DNA of 64,000 bases, from positions 49,932 to 113,931 of the forward strand of contig CAWFAD010000005.1 of the NCBI GenBank assembly GCA_963813815.1, written 5' to 3'. This DNA is from an uncultured bacterium. GTDB lineage: Bacteria; Krumholzibacteriota; Krumholzibacteriia; Krumholzibacteriales; Krumholzibacteriaceae. Position 1 is the first letter of the stretch. Each line of letters begins with the position of its first letter. The translations under genes were made by a program, and so were the position numbers. Positions 22,061 through 36,580 of this stretch are shown in pieces. The notes under the pieces are model-generated. The model ran no database searches and was not told the origin of the DNA. It saw only the letters and a program-made list of their open reading frames with translations.

Positions 22061-24163
22061 CTAGCGCTTTCCTTTCCTCTCGATGGCGCGGAGCGCCTCG
22101 GCCGTTTCGGCGAGCATCGCCTCCGCCCCCACGCGCGAGCCCACGGCGTTCATCATCCAGAGATCGGGAAGGAGATTGCCATACGTCGCCATCCGCTCGA
22201 ACTCCGGTCCGATCCGCCCCGCCCCCTCGATCTTTCTCTCGATCTGCACGGACATGAGGTGTCCCATCGGATAGTCCGGCAGATAGAGGGAGGATTCGAT
22301 CATGTGCGAGTAGACGGCGAGCAGCATGACGTCCTTCTTCTTGAAGACCGGGGCGTAGTAGCGGTTCCAGACGTCCTTCGCGATGCCGATAACGGCCTCG
22401 CGAAGCTCGGCGGGCGTCGCCTGCGGGTGATCGTACATCCAGTGCCACACCGCCATGTCCACGAGGGAGACGCCGGCGATCTCGTACGCCCCCCAGAAAT
22501 CGTTCAGCATCCGCATCGCCGCGGTCGTCTCGTCGGAGTCGACCGGCAGGTCGAGCAGCTCGAGGTCACGCGCCTGAAAGACGAAGGCGAAGGCCTCGGT
22601 GAACGCCGTGTTCGGCACTCCCTGCAGCATCGTGTGATCGACGTCGTTCAGCGAGAGGACCTGCTCGACGTTGTGGCCGAGCTCGTGAACGGCGATGTTG
22701 AACCCCTTGTAGTCCATCCCGTCCGGGCGCACCCTCGTCCGAAGGCGCGCCACGGCGCCCTTCATCTCGGCGCCCGAGGCGTGCCCCGAGCCTCGGGCCG
22801 GATCGACCGCGATGTGGCGGGCGAGGTACTCGGCCCGATCCCGCTCGAATCCGAGCTTCACGAGGATGTTCGGGATGTCGCGCTCGAAGGCTTCGGGATT
22901 CGGATACTTCGCCGCGACGATCTTGTCGAGCTCCGCCTCGTTCCGGGGGCTCGCCGGCCGAAAGCCGCTGTACCAGATGTCGTACGGCTCGAGCGCGCGT
23001 CCGAGCTTGCGCTCGATGAGGCGGGCGACCTTCGGCACGAGCGGCGACGCGCATACCTGCTCGAACATCTCCCGGACGCGCTCCTCGGGAATCTCGCGCT
23101 CCTCGTCGAACTTGCGCGCGATGTGCGTCGGCGCCGTCGGCGAGTAGGGATCGATGAGACGCGCCGCCGCGAAGGTCGACAGCAGCGTGGCGTAGCGCGT
23201 GTCCGGCTCGCGGTCGTTCGAGGGAGACGCCGCCGGCTCGACGTCGGCGTCCTTCACCGCCGCCGGCGCGACTTCGTTCGTGTACGGGTTCCAGTCGACG
23301 GCGGGGTTATTGATCACGATCTCCGGGATCGTCTGCGTGATGATGCGTTCCATGACCTTCACGATCATGCGTTGCTTCGCGGGACCGTCCGCCGCGTCGC
23401 GGTAGCTCGTCTTGAGCTCGTCGCGGACATTCCAATGCATCAGGAGGCACATCCCGGGCGGAAAAAGGCGCTTCCCCGAATCATCGAGCAGATGGTGCAT
23501 CCAGATGTTGTAGCTCGCGATGTACGCCTCCGCGTCGGCGGTGATCTTGGCGACCTCGAGGCTCACGCGCGACGGCACGCGCGCCGAGAAACGCTCGGCG
23601 AGGCGGGCCTCCGCCCATTCCCTCCTGCTCCAGCTGTTCCCCCGCTCGAGCCGCTCCTCGAGCGTCGTAAGCGGAAAATTGAGCAGCGCAACGAAAGCGA
23701 TCTTGTTCGCGAAAAAATCGTCGTTGACGTGCGCCTCCGGTTCGTATCCGGCGAACGTCTCGTCGATGGGAAGTATCGGGCCGAGATCGAGCTCGGCCTG
23801 CCACTTGAGCGCCGTCCTGATCTCGTGCATGTGGCCATCGAGCTTGTCGAGGACGCGCTCGAAGCGATTAAAAACCACGTCGCGCGTCGCCTCGTCCCCC
23901 GCGAAGCTCTCGCGCACGAACGCCTCGAACGAGGCCTCGTCCCCATCCTCCGCGCGCCAGAACGAGGCGACCTGCTCCATGCCGCGGCGCGCGCCCTCGC
24001 GCGCAACCTCGCCGTATTTGGCGACGAGCTCGGGTTCGAGCTTCGCGATCGACCCGTTCATCCACAACGGCCGCTCCGCCTGCCCCCGCGCCGGCGTAAT
24101 GCCGGACGAGCAGAAGGCGACCAGTGCGACGGCCAGACAGGCGAAAAGCTTCATCTCGTTCAT
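22061..24163 (-). CDS. Exported gluzincin-like metallopeptidase (M2/M3-like motif arrangement)
   Basis: Signal peptide; HELGHNVEQ followed by NTAFTEAFAF; late YSH..YLPDY. Confidence 0.65.
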   Translation of the reverse strand: MNEMKLFACLAVALVAFCSSGITPARGQAERPLWMNGSIAKLEPELVAKYGEVAREGARRGMEQVASFWRAEDGDEASFEAFVRESFAGDEATRDVVFNRFERVLDKLDGHMHEIRTALKWQAELDLGPILPIDETFAGYEPEAHVNDDFFANKIAFVALLNFPLTTLEERLERGNSWSRREWAEARLAERFSARVPSRVSLEVAKITADAEAYIASYNIWMHHLLDDSGKRLFPPGMCLLMHWNVRDELKTSYRDAADGPAKQRMIVKVMERIITQTIPEIVINNPAVDWNPYTNEVAPAAVKDADVEPAASPSNDREPDTRYATLLSTFAAARLIDPYSPTAPTHIARKFDEEREIPEERVREMFEQVCASPLVPKVARLIERKLGRALEPYDIWYSGFRPASPRNEAELDKIVAAKYPNPEAFERDIPNILVKLGFERDRAEYLARHIAVDPARGSGHASGAEMKGAVARLRTRVRPDGMDYKGFNIAVHELGHNVEQVLSLNDVDHTMLQGVPNTAFTEAFAFVFQARDLELLDLPVDSDETTAAMRMLNDFWGAYEIAGVSLVDMAVWHWMYDHPQATPAELREAVIGIAKDVWNRYYAPVFKKKDVMLLAVYSHMIESSLYLPDYPMGHLMSVQIERKIEGAGRIGPEFERMATYGNLLPDLWMMNAVGSRVGAEAMLAETAEALRAIERKGKR

Positions 24164-25607: not shown

Positions 25608-25684
25608 TGGCGTCCCCAACGGGATTTGAACCCGTGTTGCCGCCGTGAAAGGGCGGTGTCCTATCCGGGCTAGACGATGGGGAC
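25608..25684 (-). tRNA. tRNA-Glu (TTC)
   Basis: GTCCCCA acceptor stem, anticodon arm CCGCC-CTTTCAC-GGCGG, GGTTCAAATCC T-arm, encoded CCA. Confidence 0.97.
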
Positions 25685-25726: not shown

Positions 25727-26383
25727 TCAACGGGAAAAGGCGCTCCGGCGCCCTGGAAAGCGCCGAATGACCCCGACGACGGCGCCGATGACGGCCGCGC
25801 GGTCGCCCCTCTCCCCCGAGAGCTCGATCGGCTCGTAGGCGGGATTCGCGGGCTCGAGAACGACGCGGGTCCCCTTCCGCGCGAAGCGTTTGACGGTCGT
25901 TTCGCCGTCGACGATCGCGACGACGAGGCTCCCCGGCTCGCATGAGGAGGTCTTCCGCACGACCACGAGATCGCCGGGAACGATGTGCTCGCCGGTCATG
26001 CTCTCCCCCTTCACCTCGAGGATGAAATCCCCCCGACCCGCGAAGAGCCGCTCGTCGAGAAGCAGGGAGCCCTCTCCTTCCTCGCAGGGAGCCTCGGGCT
26101 TCCCCGCCGCCACGCGTCCCGCGAGAGGATAGGCCCTCACGGAGGCTCCCCCGCTCCCGGCCGGCGCGTCCTCGCACACGATCTCGATTGCGCGTGAGAT
26201 CCCGCGCGTCCTCCTGATGCACCCCTTCCGCTCGAGGGCCCGAAGGTGATCGACCACTCCCCGATTCGAGCGCAGACCGAAAGCCGTTCGAATCTCCCGT
26301 ATCGTCGGCGGATAGCCGTGGCGCCGCGCGTATTCCCGCAGGAACGAAAGCACGCGCTGTTGCCGCGCCGTGAGCCCGGTCAT
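25727..26383 (-). CDS. lexA: SOS repressor LexA
   Basis: LTARQQRVL..GYPPTIREI wHTH, GRVAAG cleavage site, VKGESM (Ser) and TVKRF (Lys) dyad. Confidence 0.95.
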   Translation of the reverse strand: MTGLTARQQRVLSFLREYARRHGYPPTIREIRTAFGLRSNRGVVDHLRALERKGCIRRTRGISRAIEIVCEDAPAGSGGASVRAYPLAGRVAAGKPEAPCEEGEGSLLLDERLFAGRGDFILEVKGESMTGEHIVPGDLVVVRKTSSCEPGSLVVAIVDGETTVKRFARKGTRVVLEPANPAYEPIELSGERGDRAAVIGAVVGVIRRFPGRRSAFSR

Positions 26384-29208
26384 CGCTTTCCCGTCTCCTT
26401 TCCCGGCCGCCCGCCGGTCGATCCCCCCGGATCGTCCGTCCCGGCGTCGAAGAGCGATATCTGACGCTCCGATGCGCGGCGCCTTTCCCTGCGCGCGCTC
26501 GTCCGGGCCGCCGGCGGCGCCACGCCCGGCTCGACGGCGCCATGGTAGAACTCGCCGCACAGAGTCCTCAGCCGATCCCGCCCGAAACCGCTGTCGTCGA
26601 AGATGCCGTTCTCGACGAGCTCGAGCGCCGAGCGCTCGGACACGCGCCCTTTCATCCGCTCGAGAAAGTCGCCGAGCGAAGCGAAATCGCCCTTCCAAAT
26701 CCGCTCCTCTACGATCGCCTCCCACTCTCCCTTGTCGAGCGCGACGACGGTCTGGAGCGGAGCGCGGATGACGCCGTCCTCGTAGGAGAACGACATCGCG
26801 TCGGCGTTGATCCCGAAAGGCACGACCGCCGTGCCCTTCGATCGAACGTACTTGAGGTATCGCTGCATCCGCTCCTTCACGTCCACGTTGCTGTTGAGGA
26901 GCGCGGTGAAATACCTCTCGAAGGCATGGGCCTTGAGGTACGCCGTCCGGTAGCTCACCGAGGCCTGCGCGCAGCTGAGGGCCTTGCTGTGCGTGAAGGG
27001 GATCGCATAAAGCAGAAAGTCGAAGATGCGCTCGGCGTCCTCCTCGTTCGTGCCCGCGTCCATCGCGCTCCGTATGTAGGCGAGCCGGGCCGCCTGGAGC
27101 TCGCCGGAGTCGCGATCCCGCAGCGCCCGCTCGACGGCGACGGCCTCCGCGCCGCGCAGCCCCGCCGTCTCTTCGAGAATCTCGCGCACCTGCTCCCGGT
27201 AGAGAAGGACGCCGCGCGTAAGCGCGAGGATCCCCGCCAGCGACGGATGCGGAAGATTCACCTTGCCCTTTTTCTCCGCGTTATCGCGGTACTTTTCCCA
27301 CAGCCTGCCCTCCATGGGCCCCGGCCGGTAGAGCGAAATGACGTTGACGAGCTCGTTGAAAGAGGACGGCTTGATATCCCTCAGGTGATCCTGAATGCCC
27401 CGGCTCTCGAGCAGGTAGACCCCTTCCGTTTCGCCCGTCGAAAGGAGGGCGTACACGTGAGGATCGTCGAGGGAGGGCGGCATCCAACGCCCCACTTCCC
27501 CGGCGCCGGCCACGGCGAGCTCCTCTCCCGGCTGCGAGCGGGAGAGCTCGATCGTCTCGACGATCGCCGAGAGAAAATGCGAATGTTGAATGCCGAGAAG
27601 CCAGCCGCCACACGATTCGATCGCGGCCGCGCCGAGCTCGATGAACCGGTCGCCCGCCGGACCAGCGACGAATGACGCGAACCCCTCCATCTCGCGGGGC
27701 AGGATCACGATCCGGGAGCTGTCGAGGGTGGAATGAAAGAGCCTCCCCTGCAGCGCGAAAGCCGCATGCAGCACCTCTCTCGCGAGCGGCTCGGCGGTAT
27801 AGAGCCGCTGGGCGTCGGGAGAGGCCGCGAGAAGCGAGGCGAGGCTTCGGTGCCTGCGATCGAACGCGCGGACCGAGGCGAGCTCGTTGCGGAGGTCGAC
27901 GGGGACCTTGAGAACCTCCGCGGTCTCCTTCACGATCGTCGCGAGCGACATCTCCTCCCGCTTGGCCTGGTACGTCGGCGCGTAACCCGGCAGGAGCGAG
28001 GCGACGAGCCCGACGAGCTCCTCCTTTTTCGCTTCCGAAGTGATCAGCTCCACGGGGGGCGGCACGCCGCGTCCCGAGAGGGAAAACGACTCGAAAAAAA
28101 GATCGTGATCGGCCGGATTGAGCGGTATGACCTCGATGCAGTGCGCGACGAGGCTCTCGAGGAGCGGACTCCCCATGAGCTCGATCCGGATGCCCCGCTC
28201 CGCGGCGAGGGAGGAAAGCCCGCGCAGAAAGATCAGAAATCCCGCGATCCCCTCATCCCCCGCGCTCCGGAGCTCGCGCTCCATGAGCCGGGCGAGATGG
28301 GCCCGCTCGTCGTGAGGCCGATTGTGAAACGCGAGCTTGAAGCGGCGGCGGCACCGGTCGGCGAGCGCCTCGGACGCATTGGGAACGCTCGAAAAGGCGA
28401 TCCGCCCACCGCGAGGCAGATCGACGGCGCAGCGGGCGGCGATCTCCCCCGATCGCTCGAAGACCTCCGCGCCGCCCATGAAGAGCGGGGCGAGCTCGCG
28501 TTCCCGTTTCAGGTGGTACTCTTCCGTTTGCGGCTCCTTCCCCTCCTCCTTTTCCCCCTTCGTGCCGATGCGCCTCGCGATGCGGTAATGCTCCGCGTCC
28601 TCCTTGAGCGCGTACCGGTCGTTGTTCGTCACGACGGCGTCGACGTGCGCCTTGCCGGCGATGACGACGAGCTGCTCGGCAACGAGCGGCTCCTGGCCCG
28701 CGTTATGGTTCATGAGCTCGACGAAAACGTTCTCCCGTCCGCAGATCTCCGAGAGCCTCACGATGACGTCGCGCGCGCGGCCGAGCGTCCCGTGCAGCAC
28801 CGCCTGCGCCGCCTCTCCGCGAATGCACCCGCTCAGCACGATGAGACCCTCGCGATGCGCCGCGAGATCGTCCGCCGTGACGAACCCCCCCCGATCGCGC
28901 GTGGCGTGGAGCGACACGAGCGAACACAGATTGCGGTAGCCGATGTTGCTCTCCGCGAGCACGGTCAGGTGGTAGAGCCCGAGCGCCCCCGTCAGGGACG
29001 CGTGCCGGAGCTCCGCGCCGAACACCGGCTTGATCCCGGCCCGCCTCGCGAGCTCGTCGAACTCATAATGTCCGTGGGTGGAGCAGTGGTCGGTGACGGC
29101 GATGGCGCCGAATCCGAGGTAAGATGCGCGCGAGACCATATCGGAGAGCGTGAGCAGACTCTCCGAATCGCTGTACACGCTGTGAACATGGAGCGGAACG
29201 TACGCCAC
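26380..29208 (-). CDS. DnaE (Pol III alpha) paralogue, predicted polymerase-inactive and C-terminally short
   Basis: PHP domain LHVHS/AVTDH/YHLTVLA/LSGC; LYRPGPM, YLKAH; palm PDxDxD replaced by PPVEL; QISLF near the end; GGAGG RBS before GTG at 29208; stop overlaps lexA start (ATGA). Confidence 0.9.
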   Translation of the reverse strand: MAYVPLHVHSVYSDSESLLTLSDMVSRASYLGFGAIAVTDHCSTHGHYEFDELARRAGIKPVFGAELRHASLTGALGLYHLTVLAESNIGYRNLCSLVSLHATRDRGGFVTADDLAAHREGLIVLSGCIRGEAAQAVLHGTLGRARDVIVRLSEICGRENVFVELMNHNAGQEPLVAEQLVVIAGKAHVDAVVTNNDRYALKEDAEHYRIARRIGTKGEKEEGKEPQTEEYHLKRERELAPLFMGGAEVFERSGEIAARCAVDLPRGGRIAFSSVPNASEALADRCRRRFKLAFHNRPHDERAHLARLMERELRSAGDEGIAGFLIFLRGLSSLAAERGIRIELMGSPLLESLVAHCIEVIPLNPADHDLFFESFSLSGRGVPPPVELITSEAKKEELVGLVASLLPGYAPTYQAKREEMSLATIVKETAEVLKVPVDLRNELASVRAFDRRHRSLASLLAASPDAQRLYTAEPLAREVLHAAFALQGRLFHSTLDSSRIVILPREMEGFASFVAGPAGDRFIELGAAAIESCGGWLLGIQHSHFLSAIVETIELSRSQPGEELAVAGAGEVGRWMPPSLDDPHVYALLSTGETEGVYLLESRGIQDHLRDIKPSSFNELVNVISLYRPGPMEGRLWEKYRDNAEKKGKVNLPHPSLAGILALTRGVLLYREQVREILEETAGLRGAEAVAVERALRDRDSGELQAARLAYIRSAMDAGTNEEDAERIFDFLLYAIPFTHSKALSCAQASVSYRTAYLKAHAFERYFTALLNSNVDVKERMQRYLKYVRSKGTAVVPFGINADAMSFSYEDGVIRAPLQTVVALDKGEWEAIVEERIWKGDFASLGDFLERMKGRVSERSALELVENGIFDDSGFGRDRLRTLCGEFYHGAVEPGVAPPAARTSARRERRRASERQISLFDAGTDDPGGSTGGRPGKETGKR

Positions 29209-29237
29209 CGTAAAACCTCCCGCTGGAGCGCGCGGCC

Positions 29238-29266
29238 ATACTACTAAACATTTGTACACATTGCAA
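29238..29266 (-). promoter_or_regulatory. Sigma70 promoter of the dnaE-like/lexA operon with candidate LexA operator in the spacer
   Basis: Minus strand TTGCAA-N17-TAGTAT; imperfect palindrome TGTAC-AAAT-GTTTA at 29245-29258. Confidence 0.7.
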
Positions 29267-29414
29267 TCGAATCCCGGCCGCCCGGCGCGCGGTCCGCGCC
29301 CTCCGGATGAAACCATTACTCTTTGAATCCGCGGGGGCGATGGGCTACACTCCGGCCCATCGCGCTCCGTTGAACCGGACAGGGAAACCGCCGAGAGAGG
29401 GAGGCTCGCCGCTC

Positions 29415-30209
29415 ATGCGAACGTTGCAATCGAAGCTGTACGAAATGCTCGAGCTCTCCACCGGCTCGCGGGCCGGACGGCTCGCGAACGCGATGCTCGT
29501 CGTGCTCATCATCGCCAACGTCGTCGCCGTGACCCTGCACACGGTGCACCCGTACGCGGCGCGGTACGCGCGGGAATTTCGCCTCTTCGAGCTCGTTTCC
29601 GTGATCGTTTTTTCGATCGAATACATCCTCCGGATGTGGGTCTGCACGCGGGACAAGAAATACGGAAAACCCCTCACCGGCCGGATCAAGTACTTCTTCT
29701 CCCCCCTCGCGCTCATCGATCTCGCGGCCGTGCTCCCCTTCTACCTGCCGATGCTCATACCCATCGATCTCATCTTCATGCGCGCGCTCCGCATCATGCG
29801 CCTCCTGCGCCTGCTCAAGCTCGGGCGCTACTCGGAATCGATCCGCACGATGGGCGCGGTGATGAACGCAAAAAGGGAGGAGCTCGGGGTGGCGCTCGCG
29901 ATGTCTCTCATACTCCTCCTCATCGCCTCGACCCTCATGTACTTCATCGAAGGAGGGGCGCAACCGGACGTCTTTTCGAGCATTCCGGCGGCCATGTGGT
30001 GGGGTGTCGTCACCATGACGACCGTGGGTTACGGAGACGCTTTTCCCATCACTCCGGCTGGGAAGATTCTGAGCGGGATCATCGCCGTTCTCGGCATCGG
30101 ACTCTTCATTCTCCCGGCGAGCATCATCGCCGGGGGATACGGCGAGCAGATTCGCGAGAGGCGCGGCGCCCAGCGCGCGTGTCCCCACTGCGGAAAGCCG
30201 CTCCCCTGA
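29415..30209 (+). CDS. Voltage-gated-type potassium channel / ion transporter
   Basis: S4-like RALRIMRLLRLLKLGRY, pore AMWWGVVTMTTVGYGD, C-terminal CPHCG. Confidence 0.93.
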   Translation: MRTLQSKLYEMLELSTGSRAGRLANAMLVVLIIANVVAVTLHTVHPYAARYAREFRLFELVSVIVFSIEYILRMWVCTRDKKYGKPLTGRIKYFFSPLALIDLAAVLPFYLPMLIPIDLIFMRALRIMRLLRLLKLGRYSESIRTMGAVMNAKREELGVALAMSLILLLIASTLMYFIEGGAQPDVFSSIPAAMWWGVVTMTTVGYGDAFPITPAGKILSGIIAVLGIGLFILPASIIAGGYGEQIRERRGAQRACPHCGKPLP

Positions 30210-30231: not shown

Positions 30232-30756
30232 TTATTGCGCGGCGCCGTCGTCGACGGCGGCGAGAGCGCACGAGGATGCGTCGTCCTTGTTGAACGTCAG
30301 GGTGTAATGGCGCGCCGTTCCGGGAGCGACCGGGATGTTCTCGAGATCGATCGCTTTTGGCTCCCCGGCCTTGTCGTACATCCGGATGTATATATCGCAC
30401 TCCGCGCCGGCCACGGCGACGATCGTGAGCCGGTATTCACCCGTCTCGGGGCCCATTATTTCGAGGATCCTATTCTCCATTCGCCCGTCGCCCTCGGGGT
30501 CCTCGATGGCCTCTTCGAAGTATGCCGAGCGCGGAATTTCTCCCAACGGCTTCTCCCATGCCGGATCGAGGCCCGTCCGCCGGCCGAGAGCGTCCGTGAG
30601 ATAGAACTCGCAGTCCATCCCGGAAACGATCGCGATGCCCGACATGTCCTTCTCTCGATCCGAGGCGCGCTCCGACCGGGCCGAGCCCCGACAGCCGAAA
30701 AGGATAATTCCGATCGCGCAGCAGCCCAGCGTCACGACCGAATGCCTCATGACCAT
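30232..30756 (-). CDS. Hypothetical lipoprotein
   Basis: Lipobox ILFGC; LTDALGRRTG beta-rich domain; start uncertain (30750-30762). Confidence 0.65.
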   Translation of the reverse strand: MVMRHSVVTLGCCAIGIILFGCRGSARSERASDREKDMSGIAIVSGMDCEFYLTDALGRRTGLDPAWEKPLGEIPRSAYFEEAIEDPEGDGRMENRILEIMGPETGEYRLTIVAVAGAECDIYIRMYDKAGEPKAIDLENIPVAPGTARHYTLTFNKDDASSCALAAVDDGAAQ

Positions 30757-30791
30757 CGCCACCTATCCGCCGGGGCCGGCGTCGATCTTGT

Positions 30792-30820
30792 TTGAAATTC
30801 CTTGACCGATGCGCTACCAT
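30792..30820 (+). promoter_or_regulatory. Sigma70-like promoter of the phosphatase/kinase/STAS genes
   Basis: TTGAAA-N17-TACCAT. Confidence 0.55.
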
Positions 30821-30893
30821 GCATGCCATGGCGCCGCGGGCCACCGCCGCGCTGCGGCTCATTTCGAAACATCGCATACAGGGGGGTTCGGTC

Positions 30894-32195
30894 ATGGCCG
30901 ATCCCGGTCGGGGCAACGAGCTCGAGCGAATAGCGAAGGAGAACGAACGCCTTCACAGCGCGATCGAGGAGCTCTCGATCCTGAACGACATCGCCGTCGC
31001 AACAGGCTCCACATCCTCCCTCGATCGCATCATCGAGCTCATCGTCCGCAAGTGCATCAAGCACCTCAGGGTCGAGCAGGCCCTCATCACCCTCCTCGAC
31101 ACGAAGCAGAACGGCCAGCAGTTCCGCACGATGATCCGGAGCGCCGATAGCTCGCACGAGATCCGCCCGTACCGCCTCGACGCCGAGATCGCCGGCTGGA
31201 TGCTCAAGAACCGTACGACGCTCATCGTGAACGACCTCGCGAGCGACGAGCGGTTCCAGATGAGGAACGCCGACGACTACCACGCGCGCTCCGTGCTGAG
31301 CGCCCCGCTGCTCCTCAAGGGCCGCATCATCGGGCTTCTCAACCTCTTCAACAAGCGCACGGGGGATTTCTCGGAGACCGACGCGCGACTCCTCGGAATC
31401 ATCGCCGCCCAATCGGCGCAGATCATCGAAAACGCCCGCCTCGCCGCCGAGGAGCAGGCCCTGCAGCTCATGCAGGAGGAGATGCGGCTCGCGTGCAAGA
31501 TTCAAACGGATCTTCTCCCCAAGGAACCGCCCCTCGTCCCCGGATACGACATCGCGGGCACGAGCATTCCGGCGAAGATGGTCGGCGGCGATTACTTCGA
31601 CTTCATCAAAATCGACGATCGCTCGATCGCCCTCTGTCTCGGGGACGTCTCGGGCAAGGGCATGCCCGCGGCGCTCCTCATGGCGAATCTCCAAGCGACG
31701 CTGCGCGCCCAAACCGCCGTCTGCACCGGTCCGAAGGAATGTCTCGAGCGCTCGAACGCCCTTCTCTACCGTAGCACCGACGCGGACAAGTTCGCTACGC
31801 TCTTTTACGGGATCCTCGACACGGAGGCCCACCGCCTCACGTACGCGAACGCCGGGCACAACTACCCGATGCTGCTCAAGGTCGGGTGCGATCCGGAGCT
31901 CCTCGAAACGAGCGGCCTCGTTCTCGGCTGCCTCGAGGACTTCCGGTACAGCGAGGGGGCGATCGATCTCGCGAAGGGCGATCTCCTCCTCATCTATTCC
32001 GACGGCATCACCGAGTCGTTCAACGTGAACGAGGAGGAGTACGGCGAGGAGAAGCTCTCGGGACTGCTCCGCGAGCAATGCGGCAAACGGGCTTCCGAGA
32101 TCATCGAAACGATCGTCGCCTCGGTGCGCGCGCACGCCGCCGCCGCCCCTCAGTCCGACGACATAACGCTGCTCGTCATCAGGCGGGAGTGCTGA
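30894..32195 (+). CDS. GAF plus PP2C (SpoIIE/RsbU-like) phosphatase
   Basis: GAF (SVLSAPLLLKGRIIGLLNLFNK..FSETD), VGGDYFD, GDVSGKGMPAA, NAGH, YSDGITE, QSDDITL. Confidence 0.94.
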   Translation: MADPGRGNELERIAKENERLHSAIEELSILNDIAVATGSTSSLDRIIELIVRKCIKHLRVEQALITLLDTKQNGQQFRTMIRSADSSHEIRPYRLDAEIAGWMLKNRTTLIVNDLASDERFQMRNADDYHARSVLSAPLLLKGRIIGLLNLFNKRTGDFSETDARLLGIIAAQSAQIIENARLAAEEQALQLMQEEMRLACKIQTDLLPKEPPLVPGYDIAGTSIPAKMVGGDYFDFIKIDDRSIALCLGDVSGKGMPAALLMANLQATLRAQTAVCTGPKECLERSNALLYRSTDADKFATLFYGILDTEAHRLTYANAGHNYPMLLKVGCDPELLETSGLVLGCLEDFRYSEGAIDLAKGDLLLIYSDGITESFNVNEEEYGEEKLSGLLREQCGKRASEIIETIVASVRAHAAAAPQSDDITLLVIRREC

Positions 32196-34360: not shown

Positions 34361-34432
34361 GGGATGAAAGAGGGACACTCAACAGCATGATTCGCATTCG
34401 ATCACGGATTGTTTTCCGAGAGGAGGTTCGAG

Positions 34433-36580
34433 ATGGCAAGGGGAAGATTCTTGCTCGGCGGAATCGTGATTATCGCCGTTGCCGCGATCGCGTATTTCGC
34501 CCTCGTCTACCAGCCCCCGTCGAAGGATGACACGACGGGCGCAATCGGAACGGCGGGCAAGTACCGCTCCGAGCAGATCAACGAGCAGGACGTGGTGCTC
34601 GCGGACGCGGATTACGCCGCATCCCCTGAGTACCGGATGACCGCGGAAGAGGCGGCCGCAATCTTCGAGCGGGCCACCCCCGCGCTCCGGACGGAGCTCG
34701 CGCAGCGCGCACCCCAGTTCGAGCGGGCCGAGCTTTTCGCCAAGATGACGCCCGCGGAGCAGCTCGCGCTGTGGAAATCGATCCCGGCGCAGGCGCGCGT
34801 CGATCTCTACGCCCGCCTCGGACGCCCGGCGCAAGCGGATGTCGCTGAGCGCTGCGGATTCGCCGTCGACGAGTACAACCGGGCCGCGGCGACGACGGAA
34901 GCGCGCGCCATAATGCTCGCGCGGATGCCCGAAGTCGAATGCGCGCGCCTCTTCGCCGAGGCGTCCGTTCAGGAGAAGGCGTCGTTCGTCGCCCTCGCGC
35001 CGGCGGAGCGTCAGGTGAAGTGTCTCGAACGCCTCGACTTCGAGAAGAAGGCCCGCATGCTCGAGCGCGCGACGCCCGAAGAGTTCGCGGCGATCCTCAA
35101 GAGCTGCGCCCCGGCGGAGCGGGCGGTCATCTTTTACCGCTCCACCCCCGTGGAGAAGGCGCAGGCCTTTCAGAGCGTGCCGGTCGAGGAGCGGATGAGA
35201 TTCCTCCAGAGGCTCCCCTCGGCGGAGCTCGCCAAGATGTTCGCCTACGCGACGCCGCAGGAGCGCGCGGAGTGCTTCGACAAGCTCGGCGCCCGCGATC
35301 GCGACGTCTGCCTCGCCAAGATGAGCATCACGGCGGAGGCGTGGACCAAGCTCCCCGTGCACGAGCGGAGCCGCTTCATGATGGAGCGCCTCGCCGCCGA
35401 GGAGCACGGCAGGCTCGCGTCGGCGGCCATGGACCGGACGGCCGCCATGTTCGAGCGCGCCGGGTTCGCGCAGCAGGCCAAGGCCCTCGATCTCGCCTCG
35501 CTCGAGGAGCGGGCGAATTTCACGGCGCGGATCGCCCCTGATCAGGCGGCCAAGGTCGTCGCGAGATCGGTCGATCCGGTGGCCGATTTCTTCGGCCGCG
35601 CTCCGGAGGCGGAGCTCAGCGCTCTCATGAAAAACGTTTCGGCGCAGGAAAAGGCGACTTCCTACTTCGGCAAGGCGACCCCGCAGGAGCAGGTCGCCAT
35701 GTTCGAGCGCCTGCCGCAGCGCGATCAGGATGCGTTCCTCGCCCGCGCCAAGGCGACCATGCAGGAGATCAAGGCGCTCCCGCTCAAGGAGCGCGCCGAT
35801 CTCATAGCGCGGCACGCCGCCGTTCAGGAGAAGGCCTCGTGCGTCGATCTCGCCCCCGCGCGCGAGCGCGCATGCCTCGCCCAGCGCCTCGATATGGCGG
35901 CTCGGCGCGATCTCGCCGGCCGGATGTCGCTCGCCCAGCAGGCCGAGTTCGTCGCCCGGGCGTCCGAGATCAACCAGGCCTTTATGGCTCAGCGCGCGAC
36001 GATGGAACAGCGCGCCGAGATCTATGCTCATGCGTCGCAGCCCGAGAAGGAAGCCCTCCTCGCGCGCGCGCCCGTCGCCGTGTATGCCGCGCTCCTCAAG
36101 AACGCCGCCGTCGCCGAGCGGGCCGATCTCTTCAAGCTCTGCAAGAACGACCTGCGCGTCGAGCTCTTCGCGCGCCGCACGCCCGAGATGCAGCGCGTCT
36201 TCTTCGAGCGCACCGGCGTTCGGCCCGACGTGTACGAGCGCGAATCCGCGCCCGCGAAAGCCGAGATGCTCGCACGGGCGAGCGAGGCCGAGATGGCCGC
36301 GATGGTGGATCTCGCGACCGCGCAGGAAAAGGCCGCTCTCTTCGCTGATCTCCCCCACGCCGAGCGCGCGAATTTCATGCAGGCCGCGCCGGTCGAAGCG
36401 AAGGCGATCATGATGGACGGCGCCACGTTCAAGGAAATCGCCTCCATGATCGGCCGCGTCGCGCCGGATGAAGCGGCGGGCGTTTTCGAGCGCGCGTGGG
36501 CGACACTCGATCGCTCGACACCTATGATGGATCGTTCGTCGTCGCCGGCGCAGGAGCGTACGTCGGCGATAAAGGAATAG
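34433..36580 (+). CDS. Membrane-anchored helical repeat protein (12-residue period, MgtE_N/FliG-like pattern)
   Basis: GAGGAGG RBS; N-terminal TM; many units such as ERATPEEFAAIL, KSCAPAERAVIF, YRSTPVEKAQAF, QSVPVEERMRFL. Confidence 0.85.
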   Translation: MARGRFLLGGIVIIAVAAIAYFALVYQPPSKDDTTGAIGTAGKYRSEQINEQDVVLADADYAASPEYRMTAEEAAAIFERATPALRTELAQRAPQFERAELFAKMTPAEQLALWKSIPAQARVDLYARLGRPAQADVAERCGFAVDEYNRAAATTEARAIMLARMPEVECARLFAEASVQEKASFVALAPAERQVKCLERLDFEKKARMLERATPEEFAAILKSCAPAERAVIFYRSTPVEKAQAFQSVPVEERMRFLQRLPSAELAKMFAYATPQERAECFDKLGARDRDVCLAKMSITAEAWTKLPVHERSRFMMERLAAEEHGRLASAAMDRTAAMFERAGFAQQAKALDLASLEERANFTARIAPDQAAKVVARSVDPVADFFGRAPEAELSALMKNVSAQEKATSYFGKATPQEQVAMFERLPQRDQDAFLARAKATMQEIKALPLKERADLIARHAAVQEKASCVDLAPARERACLAQRLDMAARRDLAGRMSLAQQAEFVARASEINQAFMAQRATMEQRAEIYAHASQPEKEALLARAPVAVYAALLKNAAVAERADLFKLCKNDLRVELFARRTPEMQRVFFERTGVRPDVYERESAPAKAEMLARASEAEMAAMVDLATAQEKAALFADLPHAERANFMQAAPVEAKAIMMDGATFKEIASMIGRVAPDEAAGVFERAWATLDRSTPMMDRSSSPAQERTSAIKE

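Follow-up and report, generated by a model that had tools for sequence, protein, structure and literature searches.

Polymerase folds that have lost catalysis and persist as scaffolds are already known in the Y family (ImuB) and in the B family. Eukaryotic Pol epsilon retains in its dead C-terminal module a replicative-family (B) fold that serves another role. I consider here a counterpart from the C family, encoded in a stretch of 64,000 nucleotides (called the window below; GenBank assembly GCA_963813815.1, contig CAWFAD010000005.1, positions 49,932 to 113,931) from an uncultured bacterium of the order Krumholzibacteriales. The gene, a paralogue of dnaE standing directly upstream of lexA, encodes 942 amino acids (aa) with the fold of a DnaE and a motif for the beta clamp, and without the catalytic triad. 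The protein is very probably both polymerase-dead and functional, and I will refer to it as the dead DnaE.

The replicative polymerase DnaE1, with structures from E. coli (2hnh, 4jom), Taq (2hpi) and M. tuberculosis (5lew), has the same fold and the same order of parts (PHP, palm, thumb, fingers, (HhH)2, clamp motif), whereas the dead DnaE lacks the catalytic triad, the nucleotide pocket, the GxG turn of the HhH region, the OB domain and the C-terminal domain (CTD). The error-prone, LexA-regulated DnaE2 is similar in being a non-replicative extra DnaE, linked to lexA, with a disrupted PHP domain and no CTD, but it keeps the three catalytic aspartates, and the present genome has separate lexA-iPolY-dnaE2 cassettes. 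Two further DnaE2 traits were not found, the SRDF motif at the C-termini of the dead proteins and imuA, imuB or iPolY in their neighbourhoods. DnaEX, in the accessible text of PMC3919608, is likewise an extra, divergent DnaE beside the replicase, as are the nearest active relatives found, but that survey demanded an intact polymerase active site, excluding dead proteins. PolB2, of archaea and bacteria, combines a replicative-family fold and a damaged active site with retention for another role; it differs in belonging to the B family and in that it is required, along with dedicated partners that are not seen here, for mutagenesis (PMC11791011, accessible text).

ImuB and iPolY offer the remaining likeness, a dead polymerase fold with a functional-looking clamp motif that originates from a LexA-controlled operon (PMC11791113, accessible text). 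They belong to the Y family, however, whereas the dead DnaE is of the C family, has no imuA or active partner polymerase in its operon, and persists in genomes where neither dnaE2 nor lexA was found. Nor does it have their RecA-NT motif, a candidate rejected when a small hidden Markov model built from 9 local tails gave no stretch above 0 bits in the 90 members of the dead family and the B/C/D sequences; its 28-39 bits on 8 PolY proteins come from sequences it was built from, which are not independent controls. A first-pass annotation of the window had seen in the locus a reversal of the imuB-dnaE2 arrangement, which, with no linked active Y-family partner and no RecA-NT motif, holds as an analogy only. 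It was right that neither imuA nor imuB is adjacent: two lexA-PolY-dnaE2 cassettes lie elsewhere in the genome (C1:134-5228 and C6:96581-101718, the dnaE2 of the latter spread over several frames). Their PolY starts with HVNTDDFYA and is likely inactive, of the iPolY type, and their promoters share another motif, a TTCGG repeat.

The accessible part of PMC12926913 recognizes four C-family groups and places inactive members in the Y family only; entries for Krumholzibacteriota, Latescibacterota and Eisenbacteria were not found in one of its supplementary files. A literature search, with subscription papers and bioRxiv supplements outside its coverage, turned up no account of dead DnaEs as a family, nothing relevant on Krumholzibacteriota polymerases or a Latescibacterota LexA motif, and no usable paper on a DinB brake. 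Pseudo-polymerases on the clamp are known in themselves; one from the C family is apparently undescribed so far. Dead C-family DnaEs are a blind spot, since surveys call the three aspartates absolutely conserved in the family (as in the accessible text of PMC3919608) and at least one of these surveys discarded proteins in which they are missing. For the proteins considered here, annotation as 'DNA polymerase III alpha' is wrong.

A DnaE without its catalytic residues

The dead dnaE occupies 26380..29208 of the window on the minus strand, as do all parts of the locus given below, with a GTG start and no internal stop. Its product runs from the PHP domain (residues ~1-265; 28414..29208) through palm, thumb, fingers (residues 578-790; 26839..27475) and HhH region (residues 791-880; 26569..26838) to a disordered basic linker and the clamp motif. 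Residue equivalences come from phmmer against E. coli and Taq alpha and from HHalign of the 90-sequence family against the active DnaE1 of a same-genus genome (probability 100, 27% identity, palm register gap-free), with E. coli alpha palm residues D401, D403, D405 and D555 numbered as in the accessible text of PMC3919608.

In the palm, the strand P385-V-E387-L-I389 (28042..28056) replaces D401-x-D403-x-D405 residue for residue, and G539 (27592..27594) replaces the catalytic D555. Two of the three catalytic acids are lost, and D403 is conservatively changed to Glu (E387). When the 90 members of the family are compared with 23 canonical controls, Asp is found at D401 in 0/90 and at D555 in 0/90, all three Asp being present in 23/23 controls, and the D403 position is acidic in 90/90 (Glu in 79, Asp in 11). 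The first-pass annotation, which had both PDFDVD and D555 lost, was thus correct for D401 and D555 but not for D403, where an acid is kept. It had also listed GRGS, FERFLNPER and GYGFNKSH as replaced, on which phmmer and HHalign agree, and TNDxH has become TNNDR. Residues that I take to be K553, R390 and R709 in E. coli numbering have gone the same way: the first has an equivalent in 0/90, the second in 1/90, and the third is Glu in 84/90.

Losses extend to the surfaces that hold DNA. Of 30 basic columns in canonical DnaE, 15 are lost in the dead family, 11 kept and 4 partly kept; acids have been gained at 343, 351, 418, 419, 431, 693 and 828, the groove included; and the HhH region, its GxG turn gone, is acidic, with a net charge of -6.8 as against +1.3 in canonical proteins. 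Taken together, the lost basic columns, the acids in the groove, the missing turn and the negative HhH charge suggest that little primer-template binding is left, and the dead DnaE probably no longer grips such DNA.

The fold, by comparison, is intact. Pfam matched the PHP, palm (at only 39 bits), fingers and HhH parts of the 942-aa protein, AlphaFold2 with a 113-row alignment gave a mean local confidence (pLDDT) of 90.1 and a predicted template modelling score (pTM) of 0.86, with only residues 891-942 below 50, and Foldseek matched DnaE structures at TM scores of 0.72-0.79 (Taq alpha with an E value of 1.6e-52); by all three, the PHP-Pol3-(HhH)2 fold is present. An ESM Atlas look-up returned generic DnaE clusters only. 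Conservation in the family peaks in the fingers, where 40% of columns reach 90% or more (26% in the controls) and many conserved residues are family-specific; conserved finger residues include W637, N643, K646, R665, R675 and H734.

The clamp motif, QISLF (26449..26463), stands at the end of the basic, low-confidence linker. It is followed by 22 residues, and Pfam found no OB domain in the protein, as the first-pass annotation had it (an end about 20 residues after QISLF, without OB). No stand-alone piece with OB or CTD was matched elsewhere in this assembly, and a split gene with those parts encoded separately was rejected for that reason. A QxxLF/FF motif is present in 87/90 members, 1-25 residues before the C-terminus, preceded by a basic linker (median of 5 K/R in 15 residues). 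The motif makes it quite likely that the dead DnaE binds the beta clamp; a complex prediction of DnaN with residues 575-926, which scored 0.27 where the mark is 0.32, speaks neither for nor against this.

Conservation and selection

Orthologues (36-75% identity, some of them partial or split over contigs) are present in 45/45 other genomes of the order, including some that are 61-67% complete, and in 0/15 genomes from other orders, where the best matches reach 24-31%. Named homologues are mostly from Ca. Krumholzibacteriota. Ninety orthologues (39-74% identity) have open frames of 897-971 aa, and a profile of these 90 members, run against 1.84 billion representatives, gave 11 matches of at least 679 bits and then ordinary DnaE at 586 bits or less. 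The chromosomal locus is fixed, with stable neighbours: a GAF-PP2C phosphatase, kbl/tdh-like genes and an H+-PPase.

The ratio of nonsynonymous to synonymous substitution rates (dN/dS), estimated by a simple counting method at dS ~0.8 in GC-rich DNA, has a median of 0.21 and a range of 0.11-0.36 over the 58 of 66 pairs that passed a saturation filter. The fingers give 0.17 and one pair without linkage to lexA gives 0.12, while active dnaE1 gives 0.17 (6 pairs) and 0.11. The dead DnaE is under purifying selection throughout the order genomes examined. Because the catalytic residues are lost, the clamp motif is kept and selection acts in all of these genomes, the protein has probably taken up a new role on the clamp that involves no enzymatic activity.

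These results leave almost nothing of the idea that the gene is a decaying pseudogene or a sequencing artefact, a negligible prospect for which only the broken copy in one relative (G006) speaks: the frames are open in 90 orthologues, and contigs from independent public runs span 27746-28944, 27540-28002 and 27373-27712 gap-free, across the altered motifs. The compensating frameshifts and the recent decay that the first-pass annotation had allowed for are contradicted by those contigs, by changes shared among the 90 orthologues (the Asp loss included), and by the presence of the gene across the order at low dN/dS.

The lexA operon and its operator

The gene that follows, lexA (25727..26383; 218 aa), is intact, scoring 199.6 bits against TIGR00498 (cut-off 110.95), and its ATG overlaps the TGA of the dead dnaE in an ATGA (26380-26383). 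Together with a GGAGG ribosome-binding site (29216..29220), this agrees with the uninterrupted frame, start signal and overlap described at first pass. The promoter-like stretch, TTGCAA-N17-TAGTAT (29238..29266; -35 at 29266-29261, -10 at 29243-29238), is visible by eye but scores 8/12 and was unlisted by a consensus scan with a threshold of 9. Between the two boxes lies a palindromic operator, GTGTACAAATGTTTAG (29244..29259), likely a LexA site and a candidate new LexA operator for the lineage.

Of the 38 genomes of the order in which 150 or more bases behind the gene are available, 10 have lexA following the dead dnaE, with the ATGA overlap in all 6 lexA-linked genomes of the genus. The consensus of the operator family is CTA[A/T]AC-N4-GT[T/A]TAG, and a score of at least 14 is reached in 10/10 lexA-linked genomes (9 of them the training set) and in 2/25 unlinked genomes with upstream DNA; both of the latter belong to this genus, in which decayed operators of intermediate form can also be seen. 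Outside the training set, the dinB-lexA promoters of another family (f7) carry the palindrome, with scores of 29.7, 21.4, 21.4 and 7.9. The operator tracks its cognate lexA, and LexA is likely to bind it.

A scan of the whole 2.5-Mb assembly gave one operator site of at least 20 bits. Four more scored 13-17 bits, with no clear repair gene at them, and recA, dinB and both lexAs of the cassettes had none. A wider regulon for the operator was rejected on these grounds, and LexA seems to control little beyond its own operon. The initial picture holds as far as it concerns a C-family protein that is conserved, under selection and polymerase-dead, has a clamp motif close to the consensus and belongs to a lexA operon, here one that bears a probable LexA operator. 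Its SOS induction applies to this genome and a minority of relatives; elsewhere the gene is kept where lexA, dnaE2 or dinB were not found. One genome (G039; 97% complete, 2 contigs) keeps the dead dnaE with lexA, dnaE2 and dinB all unfound and only a umuDC-like pair present. Matches of dinB type were not found in G039, G040, G044, G029, G035, G014 and others, draft genomes limiting this negative. A fixed partner in translesion synthesis was accordingly rejected, dinB being unfound in several of these drafts and dnaE2 in G039.

Origin

Degenerate DnaEs stand directly upstream of lexA in other families of the class as well, in 5/5 genomes of f5, in 6/6 loci of f6 with upstream contig and in 2 loci of f9. 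In f7 (4/4 loci) and f8 (3/3 loci) the slot is occupied by dinB, and 6 loci of f4 have neither. DnaEs of the f6/f9 type are present in 20/23 (f6) and 12/13 (f9) genomes. The Asp triad is absent from all the degenerate DnaEs of f5, f6 and f9. Arg occupies the H228 position in most of them, and most contain or end in a hexamer of the QLELPF type. Those of f5 (L078, L079, L080, L145, L147) keep GRGS and have His at D555 (Ala in the G057 pieces); those of f6 (L087, L134-L136, L138, L139) and f9 (L143, L144, L177-L184) keep the Asp at D555, and six f9 members have Glu-x-Glu at D401/D403. At eight further f9 loci, lexA is missing from the neighbouring 0.4-2.7 kb and the operator is absent too; in 7/8 of them the protein ends right behind the clamp motif, apparently a second loss of OB, separate from the order's own.

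In a quick LG+C20 tree, the dead family and the f6/f9 type are joined (Shimodaira-Hasegawa-like approximate likelihood ratio support 99); the f5 type joins them in FastTree (0.95) and under LG+G4 (90) and is unresolved under C20. The branching of the dead DnaE mirrors that of host DnaE1, in keeping with vertical descent. Grouping with host DnaE1 is rejected (approximately unbiased test, p 6.5e-6, LG+G4), and with it, under that model and with the caveat of long branches, a recent duplication of host dnaE1; nor does the dead family branch with DnaE2. Branches in the DnaE trees are long, and attraction may be at work. The nearest active relatives found are extra DnaEs such as P0131 and those of Eisenbacteria (L148:5004-8531, L149, L150), with palm intact, PHP damaged and a hexamer motif; the Eisenbacteria proteins are full-length, and their genes are not beside lexA. 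Catalytically intact DnaEs that stop after HhH also exist (the P0146 cluster of 20 members, mostly 895-907 aa, and P0247), with named members from Atribacterota and Elusimicrobiota.

Together these active and dead copies form a natural set of clamp-motif swaps, and the dead DnaE a testable case of a pseudo-enzyme turned core gene with a traceable history.

Possible roles

The favoured reading, at about even odds, makes the dead DnaE a protein adaptor, a shell docked on the clamp that was once under SOS control and is now core in the order. An accessory DnaE would have been first in a LexA-autoregulated operon in the ancestor of the class; catalysis would have been lost, then the end truncated repeatedly right behind the clamp motif; and LexA control would have disappeared in the order as the dead dnaE became a core gene, presumably expressed constitutively where lexA is lost. 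The terminal QxSLF, on its flexible basic linker, would dock the protein on the clamp, while the remodelled, conserved surfaces of fingers, PHP and palm would bind a partner, a replisome or repair protein, common to all genomes of the order. In its favour are the catalytic loss in 90/90, the intact fold, the lost basic columns, the retained clamp motif and the second truncation behind it in f9, the presence in 45/45 genomes at low dN/dS, the retention in G039, and the hexamer clamp motifs of the order's active DnaE1 and of the dead copies outside the order.

Several points weigh against this. The copy in G006 is in two frames with ~40 palm residues missing, which could mean that the gene is dispensable or the assembly faulty, and kin genomes are not independent. 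What is most likely an adaptor calls for a partner protein that is putative. The loss of DNA binding is deduced from residues, and 11/30 canonical basic columns are still present; five PHP ligands persist in 95% or more of the covering rows, although a pure scaffold would have no need of them. Archaeal PolB2, moreover, was called inactive from sequence and later found to be required for mutagenesis (PMC11791011, accessible text).

An SOS-induced competitor for the clamp, or brake on replication, is an unlikely alternative, though it suits this locus: upon cleavage of LexA the dead DnaE would accumulate, and its near-optimal QxSLF would out-compete the hexamer motif of DnaE1, pausing forks or favouring polymerase exchange. 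The gene heads the lexA operon and an operator separates its -35 and -10 boxes, dinB takes the same slot in f7 and f8 (f7 promoters sharing the palindrome), and the clamp motifs are a pentamer in the dead DnaE and a hexamer in DnaE1. Elsewhere the fit fails, 28/38 evaluable order genomes having no lexA behind the gene and 23/25 unlinked genomes with upstream DNA no operator scoring at least 14; the first-pass linkage to lexA thus extends to the minority described above. Selection persists in the unlinked pair, the assembly has a single strong operator and none at recA or dinB, and competition would take a short peptide, not 900 conserved residues.

Somewhat less probable is a replisome or repair machinery with two DnaE subunits: a DnaE1 that does the catalysis, its clamp motif weakened to a hexamer, and a dead one that would be obligatory and, recruited from the SOS operon, would scaffold the complex and hold the second clamp pocket, epsilon's place in E. 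coli. The suggestion draws on the lack of any RNase_T/DnaQ-family exonuclease match in this assembly (0/1 genome, 91% complete). In 14 order genomes checked, DnaE1 is 1142-1150 aa with palm and PHP motifs intact, and its internal clamp motif is a hexamer of the QTFLGF/QGFLGF type in 14/14 (L057-L067, L074-L076); DnaE1 from outside the order has QxxLF in 13/15 readable cases. That the order's active DnaE1 has no clamp motif was rejected, the hexamer variant being present. A separate, intact dnaE, expected at first pass, is thus found in those genomes but is absent from the present assembly (G000), most likely falling in an assembly gap, because contig C13 begins with a homologue of dnaE1's downstream neighbour in another genome of the genus (L057:9585-10276). 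If true, the arrangement would be a new replisome architecture and a bacterial parallel to the dead Pol epsilon module.

Equally doubtful is a PHP phosphoesterase tethered to the clamp, its metal site remodelled and probably binuclear, that would for example remove 3'-phosphates or act on nucleotides, the remaining fold being its carrier. The 942-aa protein has 6/9 ligands of the HHDHEH[C/H]DH site, three being changed. Ligand positions such as D23, E73, D226 and H228 carry M. tuberculosis numbers. H7 and H9 are kept in 71/71 rows covering them, E66 in 90/90, H80 in 89/90 and C128 in 86/90, and there are new conserved residues near the site in sequence, D197 (87/90) and H47 (90/90). Four ligands are unreliable in the family, however. 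The D23 position is variable, D226 has become Asn (N196 here; 88/90) and H228 Arg (R198 here; 87/90). D23N and D226N each abolish the M. tuberculosis PHP exonuclease (PMC5636811, accessible text), and any deviation from the ligand set is counted as inactive in the accessible part of PMC12926913. Related dead lineages of other families have lost most PHP ligands, and the best conserved part is the fingers, not PHP. The first-pass annotation correctly had the PHP domain mostly kept and TNDxHY altered; its PHP-only nuclease is weakened by the Asn at D226 and the Arg at H228. A PHP nuclease is unlikely, and proofreading by the dead DnaE is probably lost.

Very unlikely is a decoy, a polymerase look-alike that would absorb phage or toxin inhibitors of Pol III alpha or the clamp. 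Retention of the whole fold without catalysis would suit it, but the locus is fixed among stable neighbours in 45/45 genomes under purifying selection, and identity to the host DnaE1 to be mimicked is only ~27%. Still more remote is a working polymerase, with an atypical active site or one completed in trans by a partner. The acid at D403 in 90/90, the distant relatives with Glu-x-Glu and an Asp at D555, and the precedent of PolB2 (PMC11791011, accessible text) are on its side; against it, D401, D405, D555, K553, the GRGS loop, R390, R709 and YGFNKSH are all replaced, in a family whose three Asp are held to be absolutely conserved (PMC3919608, accessible text).

Surroundings of the locus

Immediately downstream of lexA, past a terminator-like hairpin (25735-25718), is a tRNA-Glu (25608-25684, minus strand). 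On the other side, an ion-channel gene (29307-30209, plus strand) and an unknown open reading frame (30232-30762, minus strand) separate the dead dnaE from a GAF-SpoIIE phosphatase (30792-32195); in many relatives the phosphatase gene lies right next to the dead dnaE and divergent from it. Beyond it come genes for anti-sigma, STAS and ECF sigma proteins. A 700-aa, exported-looking protein with a HELGH motif and no Pfam match (22061-24163, minus strand) is encoded near the locus in 14/21 compared regions. Behind the ECF sigma/anti-sigma pair stands a gene (34409-36580, plus strand) for a 723-aa protein with imperfect repeats of ~40 residues and matches to MgtE_N in three stretches.

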